A stretch of DNA of 64,000 nt, from IMG/VR virus record IMGVR_UViG_3300042010_000040, positions 1 to 64,000 of that record; one strand, 5' to 3'. Below the pieces are notes generated by a model, which saw only the letters and a list, made by a program, of their open reading frames with translations, searched no databases and was not told the DNA's origin. Position 1 is the first letter of the stretch. Each line of letters starts with the position of its first letter. This document shows, in pieces, positions 50,171-59,126 of this stretch. The translations under genes and the position numbers were made by a program. Source of the DNA: a virus.

Positions 50171-51625
50171 TTAAGCTCCTGCATTAAGGAAGGGGTTAGA
50201 TTGAGTTAAGTTTGCGGATAGTAAGCCGGAGGAGAAGTTTGGAATTTGTAACTTCTGGGCAAGGGTGATAAATGCATCACTTGTGGCGTCCACTTGGTCA
50301 TCCTTGTTCTTACGGCTCCCATCGAAACTCTCCAACTCATCAAAATAAGTGTCTGTCCAAGGCGCTTCGATATAATCAACAAGTCCGGCTTCAGCAGCTG
50401 CTGCGAATGGTTGGAATCTGATAATCTTGCTCTTATTAGAAGGACGCATTCTAGCGTAGAAACCTTCCGACAAAAGTTCTTTAATCATCATTTGTCCGGC
50501 AGCCTTCCCAGCTTGGCCCGGTTCTTGTGGGAGTATAATTTGAGTACCATCAGGATCAGATCCAGCAGTCTCAATTATCTTTGCCATAACTTCGCCAAAT
50601 CTTGCACGAAACCTAACAACATCAATTACAATATAACGACCTTGTTTTGTCTTACCAATAAGGACGCCAGCAGTCCAGTCCGGATTTGGTAGTGCCTCAC
50701 TAGGGATCGAACCGGCTATATCCCACGCACGACAGTAAGATATAATCTCTTTATCAAACAGATTAACTTTACCACAGAATTCTTTTTTCATGAATCCCGC
50801 TGCACTTTCCCTTACGAACCAATTGCCTTCCAGCAATCTTTTTCGTTCGGTGCCGCGAAGACCTTTGAGCCAAGCTACATACTTAGGGTTAACCTCTTCT
50901 ACAATTTTATTGTCATAAACGTTAGCACTAATGAAGGTAAAAGATAGAGCATCTTGCTCTCTTACACCATATTCAGCTAGAAGTTGCTCTTTAGTATCAG
51001 CCCAAACAAAGTCACCATCCATGAAAGAAAAGTATCTCAACATCCCATCTTTTGAACGGTCAGGAGTACCATCTTCTTGCAGGTAAGGCTCTACCCACTT
51101 ACGAAGTCCATGATCTGCATCAGGGTTACATGTGATTTTAAGGTGGGGTTTGATCGAAGGACAAGAGGGGTTCCGCATACGAGACATGATATATTGTATC
51201 ATATACATCGTATATTGGGTTCCCTCGTCTATATAGAAAAGATTTGCCTCAGACCCTTGCCAGTTTACATCAGCTTGGTCGTTTTCAAAGTGCTTTAAAT
51301 ATATTTCAGCACCACTAGCATGGAACACGAACTTACCATCCTTCGCACGCCATGTATATTCATCTGGTTTATATGCTTGACTAAAGACACGTTTACATTT
51401 AGTAAGTAGACCACCCGGACCATTAAGCTGTGGTGTTGTACGACGGGTCATCACACCAATAAAGTTAGGGATATCCGTGTACTTCAAGAAGTCAATAACG
51501 CCAATTTCACTTTTTCCGCTCGCGGCTGCGCCACCGAATAAGGTTACGTCAGCCTCCGAGGCGATATACATACTTTGGCGTAATGAACACGGGCCGGGTA
51601 ACTTTTTCTGAACAACTTCAGCCAC
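50171..51625 (-). CDS. terL: Terminase large subunit
   Basis: GGAAASGKS, YIDE, TCNP, RAWD, DDQVDA; GTG at 51625 behind GAGGAGG. Confidence 0.93.
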   Translation of the reverse strand: MAEVVQKKLPGPCSLRQSMYIASEADVTLFGGAAASGKSEIGVIDFLKYTDIPNFIGVMTRRTTPQLNGPGGLLTKCKRVFSQAYKPDEYTWRAKDGKFVFHASGAEIYLKHFENDQADVNWQGSEANLFYIDEGTQYTMYMIQYIMSRMRNPSCPSIKPHLKITCNPDADHGLRKWVEPYLQEDGTPDRSKDGMLRYFSFMDGDFVWADTKEQLLAEYGVREQDALSFTFISANVYDNKIVEEVNPKYVAWLKGLRGTERKRLLEGNWFVRESAAGFMKKEFCGKVNLFDKEIISYCRAWDIAGSIPSEALPNPDWTAGVLIGKTKQGRYIVIDVVRFRARFGEVMAKIIETAGSDPDGTQIILPQEPGQAGKAAGQMMIKELLSEGFYARMRPSNKSKIIRFQPFAAAAEAGLVDYIEAPWTDTYFDELESFDGSRKNKDDQVDATSDAFITLAQKLQIPNFSSGLLSANLTQSNPFLNAGA

Positions 51626-52781
51626 TTGTGGCCTCCTCAATGTATTTAATAATCAAGTCTTTAGCTTCATTACTAAAGCATTCAGTGTAACCTGTGAACT
51701 TCTTAGTTGGTTTATAGTAATAACCAAGAGATTTTAATTCCCGCATAATCTTTCTTTCAAGATTTGCAGAGTCTATATTAATCATCTCTTTTTCATATAC
51801 AAAGTTATAGTCATAAATATCTTTTTGGCGTTTATAAACCTTTTCCCGACCTTTCTTATTACAAGTAATACCGAGTTTCAGGAAAGATTCCTTGCCGTCT
51901 GACATTTCAACAATATAAATTGAGCCAACTCTTTGACCAAGCTCTGTATCTTCAGTGTACCGGTCAACCATATTATAAGTTGTTTTGTCGTAAGTACATT
52001 GGGCACAACCTTTACCTTTTACATGGCAAAGTGGACGTTGTTCAAAAATACCATGCACATCACAAACAATTTTAACTTTAGTTTCTGTATTTACATATTC
52101 TGCAAAATCATATGAATACTTATCTTTGTGAGTTTGTTTTGCTCTTTCGATAAAGTACTCAGTCGTGTATTCTGAATAGCGTTGAAGCAAACTTCTCTCG
52201 ACACCACACTTAGGACAACCATTACCATACATATGGGGTCCGGCAGATTGCGTGAACTCACCATGTTCTGGACAGCCAATTACAACTTTCTGAGTGAAAC
52301 CTTTAGTTAAGATAACTTTAGAATAGTCATATTTATGTTCATGGAATTCCGCACTCTTAACTAGAAAGTCTTCTTGAGATAATCTCTGCTTTTCTACACT
52401 GCACTCTGGACATCCACGGGATACCAAGTGGTGTGCTACCGTCTGACTGAAAACACCATGCTCTTTACAAATGATATCAATTTTACTTGTAGTTTTGGTT
52501 GTTGTTACTAAAGAGTAGTCAAACTTGTTTTGGTGTATTGCGGAGGCTTCAACAACAAAGTCCTCAATAGAGCGCTTGAGTGGAATAGACTCATGAACAC
52601 AATGGCGACAACCTGCACCTTTCAGGTGAGAGTCAGTTCGCTGAACAAATATACCATGATCTTTACATTCAATATCAATGTAATATCTTGGACCTCTTGC
52701 TTCCCAAGCAACATATTTATATTTGCTGTCGTGTATGTTGTTTGCTTTTTCTACAAACTTTTCAAAATTAAATTCTGGCAA
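51618..52781 (-). CDS. Endonuclease with four CxxHG...CxxC repeats and a C-terminal GIY-YIG-like domain
   Basis: CKDHG/CKEHG/CPEHG/CDVHG repeats, IYIV...KLGIT...GYTECF. Confidence 0.8.
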   Translation of the reverse strand: MPEFNFEKFVEKANNIHDSKYKYVAWEARGPRYYIDIECKDHGIFVQRTDSHLKGAGCRHCVHESIPLKRSIEDFVVEASAIHQNKFDYSLVTTTKTTSKIDIICKEHGVFSQTVAHHLVSRGCPECSVEKQRLSQEDFLVKSAEFHEHKYDYSKVILTKGFTQKVVIGCPEHGEFTQSAGPHMYGNGCPKCGVERSLLQRYSEYTTEYFIERAKQTHKDKYSYDFAEYVNTETKVKIVCDVHGIFEQRPLCHVKGKGCAQCTYDKTTYNMVDRYTEDTELGQRVGSIYIVEMSDGKESFLKLGITCNKKGREKVYKRQKDIYDYNFVYEKEMINIDSANLERKIMRELKSLGYYYKPTKKFTGYTECFSNEAKDLIIKYIEEATSG

Positions 52782-55102: not shown

Positions 55103-55507
55103 TTATTCATCTTCATCAGGTTCAACGAATACTAGTGACAGACGTGGTTTCATTTCGGCCTTGATCTGCTCAGGAGATTGCTCTTCCTCTTCAGTATCAC
55201 GCTTACCTTCTGCACGAGCTTTGAAGTTTGTAATCTCATCGCTGCTAGCTGCTTTTTCAACGCTGACAATGGAATTGATAATCCACTTTGCGCTTGCGAC
55301 AGACTCAGAGTTTACATTTTCATTCTTAAGACTCTTATCAATCAAAGCTAGAGCAATATCTTCGCGTTCACGAAGCTTGTCAGCCAGTTCACGCAGTTTA
55401 CTCTTTTTGATTCGAACCTTACTGTTTCCCGAAGTGTTTCTGTTTGAACGTGGCCCATCAAACCTAGTATCTGGGCTAGGATTCGGGTTTGTAATTTTCT
55501 TAGCCAT
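55103..55507 (-). CDS. Putative terminase small subunit
   Basis: TRFDGPRSNR..G basic N-terminus, helical core, acidic tail, near TerL. Confidence 0.55.
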   Translation of the reverse strand: MAKKITNPNPSPDTRFDGPRSNRNTSGNSKVRIKKSKLRELADKLREREDIALALIDKSLKNENVNSESVASAKWIINSIVSVEKAASSDEITNFKARAEGKRDTEEEEQSPEQIKAEMKPRLSLVFVEPDEDE

Positions 55508-55519
55508 AAATGTTACCTA

Positions 55520-58216
55520 TTAAGATACAGAAGGCATAACGCGGAAGTTTGTACTCGTTCCGGCGACACCTTCCGCCACATTGACCCAGCCCATCGATCC
55601 ACCTGCTGCAATTGTATTATTCCAAATCTTGTGACCTCTGGAATAATAAAAACCATCGGTTGGAATTGCTGTTGCATAGTGTGGGGTGACAGAGACAAGC
55701 ATCCACTCTGCTGTTGTACCTAGTTGTGGGATGATCCTTTCGAATATCAAAGCACCACCGCTAGGGCAGGTGAGTTCAGGGACACCAGATGCACGTAGAC
55801 TAATATTACCATTAGATCGTACAGTTACAGCACCGATTGCAAACAGTGTACGATGTTGTCCGGGGTTTGCCCAACCATGAAGATTTGAAATACGGATGGT
55901 CCTGTCAGCATTAGGGGACACATAGCAAGATGGATGGCCCTGCATATCAACGTTACCAGAAGCATCAGTAACAACAATTTTGTGTTGTCTGTTGTTCTTA
56001 AACAGTGTCATTCCGGTAGTTTGCTTACTGTTCTGTCCCACGTATTCCCAAGACTGAACTTGGTCAAGGCCTACACTACTAGCGGCAACCATGTTGTCAA
56101 CAGTACCGAGCATAAACCCACCGGGGCCAACCTGTGTGCGGCTGCTGACACCTTCCCTGAAGATACCCCCATCACCAACACCACCTTGAATGAAAGTAGT
56201 TGCTACAGTTTGGGATGCGCTAACTTGGTAAGTGCCAGACTTTCCAGTTGAACCTGTCAACTGTTGGACTATGGTGGTTCCAGCAGTAACCCCAGTACCC
56301 GTTAATGACATACCCGCAGCGAACCTGCCAAGCATTGACACATCGTTCTCAATCGTAAGGGTAGTTCCTGCAATGGAGCCATTACCTCGACCCGCACCAA
56401 CCGTACCATTGCCAGCATTAGCATGTCTGTTAGCTTGGAAGAATTGTTGGGCGCCAGTTTGAATGTCAAAACAGATACCTACAGATTCAAACCAAGTTTC
56501 CATTACGCTATTGTTACTGCAAGCACCAAGCTCCTTCCAACCCAATCGGGTTTTTTCACAAGCAAATTGCCCCATAGCCATTACACCAGTGGGGCAACGT
56601 GCAGCCTGACCAACACCGGCAATATCAGAAGTACTTTCACCATGACCACTTGCATTGTCTGCAACTTCCGAGGGGGTTGGGTCAAATGTCAACAGTACAC
56701 CGATATCTGATATATCATCTGGTGCTGTGCTCATACCGCCTGTGTAACCGTTCTCAAGTTCAATTTGACCGTGTTGGCCAGTGAACATGTAGCCAATACT
56801 GCCAATAGCTCCACGGGCACCTACTTGACAATCCTGAAACTTAACAAACTGGTTTGGGAGAAGTGAATGAGCATCGGTATATCCGGCTCTTGACCACACA
56901 CATCTGTTGAAGTTAATGATTCTGACATTGAAGAATGTCGTGTGCCACAACCCACCTTGAGTGTACCCAGCATCCCATTTTGCACGGGCATACAATCCCC
57001 ACTGTGTTGGGTTGACAGGTGCCACGTTAAAGTCTGCTGTTGATGCTCCGCTTATAGTGAGGTTAGACCACCCGCATTCTGCAACAACGCCAGAGTCAAT
57101 TTCCACCATCCCGTAAGTAAATCCGGGATCTGCTACAGGAAGAGCAACAAACCCACCATTCCTCACGCCGGGGCCGTCAACTGGAACTCTGGAGCGGATG
57201 GTTAGCTTAGTTACGGGGGAGAAGCCAGACCCAAGTCTAACCTTACCCCCACCCTTACTGGACGCATATAGAGATGCTTTTTCACAAGCCAGAGTGTCAT
57301 CTGTCACGCCGTCAGCCAGTCTACCAAACTCCTCCATCCAAATTTCACCGGAAGTAATTCTTTGGAACCTGCCTGTTGGAACACCCACAACAGCGAAAGT
57401 ATACCCACCATTATCCGGTTCTGTTGAAGCAGAGTCCCATATGAAATCACCACCGCCGCGTGGGCCAAGATAAGGTACTCTTGTGGACCACCCAGCATGA
57501 TAGGATGCGACTTTATAAGTAAGGCCAGTCTTTCTTGGTAGCGTCAATAGGTCTGCAACAGAATCAACAGACACCACAGCACTGCCAACATTCAGTGCTG
57601 CACCATCGGCAGCAAGGTCTGCAATGCTTACTTTTGTACTTAGAAGACCTTCTGTGTAAACAGCAGAAGCCTGTGCATCATTGGCGGAGTCTAAGGAGTC
57701 TTGAGCAGAAGCAGCGCTTTCAGCAGCTTTAGTAGTCGCTGTAACTGCACTTGATGCTGAAGACACAGCCGAAGTTTGACTTGCTGTGGCACTATTGGCA
57801 GAAGCTGTTGCAGAGTTAGCCGAATTCGTAGCACTTACCGCAGCTTGGCTTGCAGACGCAGCAGCAGCATTCTTACTAGCCAATGCACCAGCAGCATCAG
57901 CAGCCACTTGAGCTGCCAAGCCATCACTATGAGCTGTCTGATCAAGCATCAACAATTCATTAATTGTTGTCTGCGTTGTATCATCTGTAATCTCAATATT
58001 ACCAATGTTGGCATAAGATCTGTATTCTAAAGAAAATACACTAACATGATACCAACCGTTTGGGACATCAATTTCATACTCACCATCTTCATCTGTCTTA
58101 AAGTCTTTTGTTACAAACATAAGAACTTGTTCAGAGGTGTTATTAGCTGTAATCCGAACAGAAGAGTTTTTGTATGGTTCGCCTGTAGGGGTGAGGAGGG
58201 TGCCTGAAAGAATCAT
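55520..58216 (-). CDS. Tailspike/side-fibre depolymerase (Stf-like N-terminus, Ala/Ser linker, beta-helix)
   Basis: [13 protein letters not shown]...TDEDGEY, AAASAS repeats, [13 protein letters not shown]-terminal GWVNVAEG. Confidence 0.85.
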
Positions 58217-58920
58217 ATTGTCCCTACTGAGGTGGAGAGCTTGTTTTGTTTTTATAGAAAGATTTTCTTAAAGCCTATCAACAGGACAACCTGCAATACA
58301 TTTAGAAATGATAATAGGACTTAAGAAAATCAACTCTTTAGAGGAGAGGGCTAAAGAGTTGATGAAAGAATGTCTACAGGAGAGGATAGACTTCTTTAAG
58401 ATGCTGACGCGAGAGGAAGAGGAGGAGAACGTCAGCTTTGAAGGCACCATTAATAAAGAATTTATACTTGGATGGTGTCGGGTGAAACTAATTTGAGTGG
58501 TTGGTACTGAACTCCAACTTGCTGACGGCATATTCAGCAGCATACCCGCGTTGTGCTATTTCTAGTCTTACGCTGTGTATCAGTCTACACATTCACTCAA
58601 AACTGGAGCATACCTTGAAGGAATCTAACCTTCGACAACTTAAACGTATTCTAGACTACAGAATAAGGAGCCAACATGAGGCAGCATAAAACTTTAGTTT
58701 GAATCTTTAAATTCATTACCCCGTATTAAAACCATTTGAGCATCAATAAAGACACACATTGATAAGCTTGTTTAATTCCGAGGATTTCAGAACTCGTCAG
58801 TTCATTTCTTTAAGGGGCTCTAAGGCCTACGAAAAGACATTATTATGTCTCTCGGAATTGGAGTATAAATACTTCCTTTATTTTTCCCTAAAAATTTCCG
58901 CTGGTCTTCCTTGACCCAGT
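58217..58920 (-). ncRNA. Candidate large structured ncRNA or ncRNA cluster
   Basis: Follows a consensus promoter; multibranch domains, a tRNA-like element and three hairpins with UCUCCU loops. Confidence 0.55.
58604..58685 (-). other. Degenerate tRNA-like element
   Basis: T-arm GAAGG-TTAGATT-CCTTC, 3' CCA, 7-nt-loop stem TATTCT-GTAGTCT-AGAATA; no canonical D-arm. Confidence 0.45.
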
Positions 58921-58926
58921 AAAACA

Positions 58927-58955
58927 AGTATGAACTATAAAAGTTCTTTTGTCAA
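58927..58955 (-). promoter_or_regulatory. Sigma70-type promoter
   Basis: TTGACA-17-CATACT. Confidence 0.75.
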
Positions 58956-58979
58956 GTAATTGACTAATTTATTTGCAAT

Positions 58980-59126
58980 TTATTCAAAAATAGGCATCAC
59001 TTTACGGAATTGTGTGTTTCCTTCGGTGATACTTTCGAATGCATACTCAAATTTAAAGTCTGGATTGTCTTCTTCCCACAAATCTTCTTCAAGTTCTTCG
59101 TCTTCAAGATAATCTTCAATTTTCAT
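58980..59126 (-). CDS. Small very acidic protein (48 aa)
   Basis: MKIEDYLEDEELEEDLWEEDNPDF..., AGGA SD, overlaps the end of the HNH gene. Confidence 0.6.
   Translation of the reverse strand: MKIEDYLEDEELEEDLWEEDNPDFKFEYAFESITEGNTQFRKVMPIFE

Follow-up and report, generated by a model that had tools for sequence, protein, structure and literature searches.

A conserved, tRNA-linked RNA with repeated pyrimidine-rich hairpin loops in uncultured Pseudomonas-type myoviruses, and its possible role as an anti-Shine-Dalgarno RNA

Three neighbouring hairpins with unrelated stems all display the same short loop word in a phage genome, within a stretch of 900 nt that holds no convincing genes. Such a pattern raises the questions of whether it belongs to an RNA or to a small gene, which of the two strands carries the product, and what the repeated word might be for. 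The DNA considered here (the window) comprises the first 64 kb of a complete IMG/VR virus record of 92,347 bp (41% G+C). The portal and large terminase encoded there share about 50% identity with their counterparts in the Pseudomonas myoviruses vB_PsaM_M1 (Ounavirinae; M1 in the following), phiPMW, the KIL phages, PAK_P3 and KPP10. The stretch is flanked by an HNH gene and a small polymerase gene on one side and by a tail-fibre gene on the other, all on the minus strand. A preliminary description, made from the letters of the window, had left two strands in play: an RNA whose C-rich loops could cover Shine-Dalgarno (SD) sequences, read from the minus strand, or a bait for CsrA/RsmA, read from the plus strand.

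A conserved structured RNA on the minus strand

Between 58264 and 58488 the minus strand of the window encodes a non-coding RNA of about 225 nt that is conserved and highly structured. Three inverted repeats are found at 58329-58436, at the positions given in the preliminary description, and the layout that it had pointed out, unrelated stems with a common loop word, recurs with CU-rich loops and other stems in 21 further phage contigs. The three-hairpin pattern is far beyond chance. Folded as the minus strand, the 131-nt stretch reaches -35.7 kcal/mol (z = -6.84) and none of 200 dinucleotide shuffles is equally stable; the plus-strand fold of the same hairpin stretch gives a z of -2.76.

Related IMG/VR contigs were collected from three starting points: the large terminase, the N-terminal part of the tail-fibre protein, and a 16-mer taken at the start codon of the tail-fibre gene. 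Seven close relatives have the same hairpins and the same loop words on different stem sequences, and each of seven sequences, when folded alone, adopts one five-helix layout, H0 to H4 (Table 1). A covariance model seeded with the window and its closest relative (L004), and rebuilt twice, identified 22 family members among IMG/VR phages with a large terminase 50-99% identical to that of the window, the element being present once per complete genome. Across the alignment of these 22 sequences 95.2% of the cells are standard pairs and 37 of the 38 pairs change on both sides, counts that are somewhat inflated because the alignments behind them were fitted to the structure of the model. The covariation score is 0.788, compared to 0.19 for column shuffles (0 of 500 reach 0.788) and to at most 0.11 when the partners are slid by 1-3 columns. 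Folds of single sequences, which do not depend on the model, give the same helices as the alignment (7 and 22 sequences). The preliminary description had proposed to decide the matter by asking whether the stems covary around invariant loops or a reading frame is conserved instead, and on this comparison a structured minus-strand RNA is clearly favoured. The element is a new RNA family, well supported with its 22 members, and its carriers are a clade of uncultured Ounavirinae-like (Pseudomonas-phage-type) myoviruses.

Beyond these members, weak matches to the model (23 bits) were seen at L084:5475-5650, where hairpins with CUCC loops come right after a tRNA-Trp, and at L076:5101-5239, which has fewer CUCC-loop hairpins; the number of modules may vary within the family, as it does in the cuckoo RNAs discussed below. 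Among cultured relatives, a search of 50,697 phage records gave no DNA match, and the covariance models gave none in M1 or PAK_P3, both Pseudomonas phages. When 185,579 GTDB species genomes were scanned for the pattern, 66 matches came back, approximately as many as chance would give, and none of them matched the model.

The helices also speak for one strand over the other. They hold 56 G.U cells compared to 7 A.C cells, an excess that assigns the RNA to the same strand as the structural genes, and pairing drops from 95.2% to 88.7% when the opposite strand is read. Every match to the covariance model lies on the strand of the terminase gene. A plus-strand product would be either an RNA with AGGAGA/GGA loops serving as bait for CsrA/RsmA, or the 62-aa protein of the open reading frame 58308-58496 (plus strand), and it is true that this frame is open in the window and that the loops would then hold GGA words. 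However, in L004, the closest relative, no more than 24 codons of the frame are left, and it is interrupted in most others, so that the conserved frame which the preliminary description had named as an argument against an RNA is absent; nor does an SD precede its ATG, and a PHROG search matched neither this frame nor the overlapping minus-strand frame 58268-58543. The earlier suggestion of a plus-strand CsrA/RsmA bait fares no better, as the G.U cells would become A.C mismatches in a fold that is weaker in any case, and the neighbouring genes, the tRNAs and the model matches are all on the other strand. The G.U asymmetry, the terminase-strand matches, the poorly kept frame and the lack of PHROG matches together argue for a minus-strand RNA product, and we regard a plus-strand product as very improbable. 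A GGA sponge of the CsrB/RsmY/RsmZ type was likewise rejected, since the transcribed strand displays UCC and not GGA; the Csr/Rsm families of Rfam gave no match to the element even at E up to 10.

Read from 5' to 3', the element consists of the leader GUUUCACC, the helix H0, the three hairpins H1-H3 with their pyrimidine loops of the CUCUCCU type, and a Y-shaped domain, H4. The core hairpins of the preliminary description are therefore retained in their places, but the conserved element is larger than its coordinates, running from 58488 to approximately 58264 and containing two more helices, H0 and H4. H0 was recovered by independent folds of 7 and of 22 sequences; it is 95% paired, and four of its five pairs change on both sides. 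The same holds for all pairs of H1 (8/8), H2 (12/12) and H3 (13/13). In the window and in 19 strong homologues these three hairpins stand side by side, with a bulged, longer H3 in some members.

Compared with the usual form of a Rho-independent terminator (GC-rich stem, 3-8 nt in the loop, U run), H3 together with its U-tract resembles a weak one, with a 13-bp AU-rich stem, a 9-nt loop and the tail UUUUCUUA, in which 6 of 8 nucleotides are U; a terminator scan did not call it. The U-rich tract follows H3 in all members, and it doubles as the 5' arm of H4. The closing stem of H4 is long and nearly perfect (9+7 bp in the window, 14-16 bp in relatives), with 11 distinct arm sequences among 16 members, and in the inner hairpin all five pairs are compensatory. 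H4 stands outside the covariance model: MAFFT with RNAalifold gave the inner hairpin alone, and the outer stem was read from single-sequence folds. The domain may be an RNase III or other processing site, or it may be a functional domain of the RNA. We also considered the element itself as a tRNA or tRNA-like molecule, but neither ARAGORN nor the Rfam tRNA model recognised a cloverleaf.

Table 1. Coordinates of the RNA element and its surroundings in the window, in the order of minus-strand transcription
Feature	Position	Strand	Description
Sigma-70-like site (candidate promoter)	58927..58955	-	TTGACA-17-CATACT; about 440 nt upstream; consensus match only
Upstream non-coding modules	58489..58926	-	structured mosaic, shared piecemeal with other phages
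5' leader	58481..58488	-	GUUUCACC; in 19 of 22 family members
Helix H0	58445..58477	-	loop with conserved AAG..UAAAUUCU
Helix H1	58403..58436	-	long all-pyrimidine loop UUCUCCUCCUCUUCCUCUCG (58410-58429); in the plus-strand reading, arms 58403-58409/58430-58436, 7 bp, 20-nt purine loop
Helix H2	58365..58397	-	loop CCUCUCCU (58378-58385); in the plus-strand reading, one bulge, loop AGGAGAGG plus flanks
Helix H3	58329..58363	-	13 bp, loop CCCUCUCCU (58342-58350), then UUUUCUU; in the plus-strand reading, arms 58329-58341/58351-58363, 13 bp perfect, loop AGGAGAGGG
H4, Y-shaped domain	58264..58328	-	directly after the three hairpins
Tail-fibre gene	55520..58216	-	PHROG tail-fibre matches; first open reading frame downstream in the window's group

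A place among tRNAs, ahead of the structural operon

What the preliminary description had offered, on one of its readings, as a minus-strand RNA is, apart from the 5' helix and the 3' Y-shaped domain that it missed, one module of a tRNA-linked array. The element is always oriented as the terminase and structural genes are, and lies inside or just after a phage tRNA cluster. For four contigs (L004, L056, L057 and L058) it starts on the very nucleotide after the 3' end of a tRNA (tRNA-Thr or tRNA-Gly), and for L078 it comes 9 nt after a tRNA-Arg that ends a run of five tRNAs. Two tRNAs lie about 150 nt upstream of the element in L002, and L085 has a tRNA-Gln after H4. The closest cultured phage, M1, carries tRNA-Pro/Asn/Thr at the matching place without the element. 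ARAGORN found no tRNA in the window, and RF00005 has no match in 58150-59000; relatives hold tRNAs where the window has its upstream non-coding modules. One of these (58700-58827) shares 95% identity with a module that in L003/L054 adjoins the element directly, and another (58600-58690) shares 84% identity with a stretch of L076/L077.

The sigma-70-like site beyond these modules is a candidate promoter of the RNA array, and L002 has a comparable consensus match, and only that, upstream of its tRNAs (TTGACT-16-TATAAT). We also looked at GUUUCACC and UAAAUUCU as the -35 and -10 boxes of a promoter within H0 and rejected them: the arms of H0 covary and the abutting tRNAs leave no room, for which reasons transcription must start upstream of the element. 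Neither of the two words recurs in the genome above chance. At the predicted 5' end of the transcript (58831-58926, minus strand) there are hairpins with GGA-rich loops (UCAAGGAAGA, AGGGA), and an AGGAAGA found there is complementary to the UCUUCCU that the loop of H1 carries in that transcript, a complementarity that may be due to chance because the GGA hairpins seem not to be kept in L003.

On the downstream side, the distant members lack a tail-fibre gene at this position. Their next open reading frame encodes 130-138 aa and is 53% identical to the window gene 55103-55507 (window compared to L078:6082-6480), from which the ancestral order appears to be tRNAs, element, terS-like gene and terL; the tail-fibre gene looks to have been inserted after the element in the window's group. 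The protein of 55103-55507 (minus strand) has 134 aa with a basic N-terminus and an acidic C-terminus, and is possibly a small terminase (terS-like); it matched no Pfam and no PHROG family. A little further along, the HNH/endonuclease frame 51618-52781 (minus strand) overlaps the start of the large terminase gene (region 50171-52781), and M1, likewise, encodes a homing endonuclease immediately ahead of terL.

Where the tail-fibre gene starts (58200-58216, minus strand), the sequence GUAGGGACAAUAUGAU is invariant in seven phages (the relatives being L002-L005, L030 and L038), while the RNA stems upstream of it differ. In distant members AUAGG(U/A)A precedes the terS-like gene. The SD at the start of the tail-fibre or terS-like gene is weak, yet unusually conserved. 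Pairing in cis between the loops and this downstream ribosome-binding site (CCCU with the invariant UAGGGA) was tried and rejected, as it spans 4-6 nt and is not kept in some members.

The loop word and how the RNA may act

The 21 members from which loops were taken provide 59 pyrimidine-rich hairpin loops, and CUCC is found in 58 of them, UCUCCU in 50 and CUCUCCU in 45, with CCUCC seen only in some H1 loops. Stems that are free to change around a loop word that is fixed are the signature of a motif recognised as a single strand. The composition is C-rich and G-poor (C 24-29%, G 10-15%). The word UCUCCU is the exact complement of AGGAGA, and the preliminary description was right to regard the latter as a widespread SD in this genome: it is the commonest hexamer in the 20 nt before starts, present in 28 of 188 crude gene calls compared to 8 for AGGAGG.

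The reading that we favour, though at somewhat below even confidence, is that this conserved, tRNA-linked RNA acts in trans as an anti-SD RNA. The element would be made within a polycistronic tRNA/ncRNA precursor, and its 5' end would be freed by processing of the tRNA 3' end; the sequence at the junction of tRNA and element, CCA-G|UUU, resembles an RNase E site. The 3' end would arise either by weak termination at the U-tract of H3 or by cleavage in the long H4 stem. Once released, the RNA would be three-valent, its exposed UCUCCU/CUCUCCU loops pairing with ribosome-binding sites of the AGGAGA(G) type in phage or host mRNAs and blocking the binding of 30S subunits, which is the mode of action of the cuckoo/ar14 sRNAs (NfeR1, CcsR) and of S. 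aureus RNAIII. Trivalent masking of SDs is the most economical reading, but a word of this kind pairs with nearly every ribosome-binding site. A cis-acting leader would account just as well for the fixed position at the head of the packaging/structural operon, for the U-tract of H3 and for the long H4 stem, and the C-rich, G-poor composition also fits a site for Rho or for a protein.

On the anti-SD model one class of genes might be expected to be spared, and we compared the pairing of the loops with different classes of genes. Late genes pair less well with the loops than non-late genes in G000 (p = 0.004) and G003 (p = 9e-5), with a weak difference in G004 and none in G001. However, the control phage M1, which does not have the RNA, shows the same difference between late and non-late SDs, so the result is not evidence for the model. 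As an observation in its own right, late (structural) genes favour SDs of the AAGGA type and other genes GGAGA/GGAGG, while both types are predicted to pair equally well with the 3' end of the 16S rRNA; this preference is seen in the phages G000, G003 and G004, which carry the element, and also in M1, and is not significant in G001.

Of the other minus-strand readings the one that deserves most weight, even if we think it rather unlikely, is that the element is the cis-acting leader of the packaging/structural operon. H3 and its U-tract would then be an attenuator giving a 5'UTR-derived RNA, H4 an RNase III-type site that splits the tRNA/ncRNA precursor from the mRNA, and the CU loops perhaps rut-like places for Rho loading or trapping, the whole setting the read-through into about 30 kb of late genes. 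Indeed, in every case the operon's first gene (the terS-like 133-aa frame in distant members, the tail fibre in the window's group) follows the element directly, and the U-rich tract after H3 in all members, the covarying 14-16 bp closing stem of H4 and the base composition all agree with such a role. Moreover, ncRNAs derived from 5'UTRs by premature termination have been reported in virulent Pseudomonas phages including PAK_P3 (PMC10914365). Against a leader, the tRNA-Gln after H4 in L085 shows the element behaving as a module of a processed array rather than as part of an mRNA, three loop copies of an invariant heptamer exceed what a terminator or a processing site needs, M1 keeps both the tRNAs and the operon without the element, and there is no conserved alternative pairing of the loops with the downstream ribosome-binding site.

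The repeated loops could also be aimed at a protein. An exposed word repeated on variable stems is the design of sponges of the CsrB/RsmZ type, and three pyrimidine loops might titrate a CU-binding protein such as S1, Rho, a cold-shock protein or a KH-domain factor (for instance Era, which reads the 16S 3' end). The loops do resemble the 16S 3' end (CCUCC) and the composition is C-rich and G-poor, but no gene for a partner protein is conserved next to the element, its neighbours being tRNAs and a terS-like gene without a Pfam family, and we consider a protein decoy improbable. Less probable still is an anti-sponge, one of the minus-strand options of the preliminary description, in which the CU loops would base-pair with GGA loops in RsmY/RsmZ-type sRNAs of the host and so release RsmA/RsmE. 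The words UCC and CCCU are complementary to A(N)GGA loops, and the type of phage points to a Pseudomonas host, which has the Rsm system; however, CUCUCCU matches AGGAGAG, the SD word, better than it does the ANGGA consensus, and the Pseudomonas host is only presumed.

Returning to the anti-SD reading, its fullest version, which we hold to be rather doubtful as a whole, is that a virulent phage makes an abundant, three-headed SD mask from a tRNA precursor, which would compete with the 16S 3' end for sites of the AGGAGA type and re-programme translation of host or early phage messages, as an RNA counterpart of T4 RegB convergent with the cuckoo sRNAs. Virulent phages have so far yielded few regulatory RNAs, and the functions of the classic examples (T4 RNAC and RNAD, sRNA1 and sRNA2 of PAK_P3) are not known. 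In the present case the design of the element implies a mechanism, that is, multivalent pairing with ribosome-binding sites. If this is true, phages can govern the initiation of translation globally by means of an RNA, in a clear convergence with bacterial anti-SD sRNAs. The modular, tRNA-linked layout suggests that phage tRNA clusters may be general nurseries of processed regulatory RNAs. Were the element to act in cis, it would still mark a point of control, conserved in this clade of uncultured phages, where the packaging/structural operon begins.

Comparison with known regulatory RNAs

No family of Rfam 15 reaches its threshold on the element. The best match is RF02344 (ar14), which matches along the whole of its 123 positions, each hairpin and each loop facing its counterpart, with 30.2 bits (E about 0.001-0.009); the same model scores 38.8 bits in the relative L049, compared to a gathering score of 58.8, and has no match in three other relatives. 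The preliminary description had likened the hairpins to known regulators with C-rich loops, a comparison that proves apt in view of this sub-threshold but end-to-end alignment. Cuckoo RNAs, to which ar14 belongs, have 2-4 adjacent simple hairpins, without multiloops, with CCUCCUCCC in each loop on highly variable stems, and are found in Rhizobiales and Rhodobacterales only (PMC4615179). For NfeR1 and like members, repression of mRNAs through anti-SD loops has been described (PMC10746234).

The phage RNA shares with this group (ar14; NfeR1/SmelC397 of S. meliloti; CcsR1-4/RSs0680a-d of R. sphaeroides) the adjacent hairpins, the common anti-SD-like loop word, the variable stems and the U's after the last hairpin, and the full-length alignment of ar14 extends to both the window element and that of L049. 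It differs in that the loop word is CUCUCCU and not CCUCCUCCC, that it scores 30-39 bits and so stays below the gathering threshold, and that it has the extra domains H0 at the 5' side and H4 at the 3' side. Furthermore, all 22 members lie on IMG/VR contigs of Pseudomonas Ounavirinae-type phages and not on an alphaproteobacterial chromosome or plasmid, and the phage element is apparently cut from a tRNA precursor, whereas the cuckoo RNAs have their own promoter. As a class, cuckoo RNAs are Hfq-associated repressors that act in trans by pairing with ribosome-binding sites. The phage RNA is probably a convergent analogue of cuckoo/ar14 and not a member.

Among phage RNAs, the nearest in setting are those of virulent myoviruses. 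T4 RNAC/RNAD and PAK_P3 sRNA2 are small stable RNAs, abundant late in infection, that are encoded, as our element is, among phage tRNAs (PMC9697503; PMC4933390), the likeness to the T4 RNAs being one of description. In the related Pseudomonas phage PAK_P3, abundant late small RNAs come from the matching tRNA locus, with sRNA2 between two tRNAs (PMC4933390), and the locus is syntenic with ours in its order of tRNA, sRNA and tRNA followed by genes before terL. However, sRNA2 is GC-rich, tRNA-like and devoid of CU loops, and its sequence is unrelated, the model of our element finding no match there. A different precedent is the c4 antisense RNA of phages P1 and P7, which is processed by RNase P. 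As would be the case for our element, it is excised from the beginning of a longer operon transcript, and its loops pair around a ribosome-binding site (PMC12197685), but c4 acts on one specific downstream mRNA through matched loops, and no such conserved specific match was found here.

In the way the loops are used, the closest parallels outside the cuckoo group would be S. aureus RNAIII, RsaE and the 6C RNA of M. tuberculosis, which pair with ribosome-binding sites through a C-rich word shown in more than one hairpin loop (PMC4615179; PMC6486639; PMC2837412). These are chromosomal regulators with known targets and share neither sequence nor architectural homology with the phage element. Judged by these analogies, the phage RNA would be a phage variant, in a new family, of a known kind of regulator, one that works by covering Shine-Dalgarno sequences.
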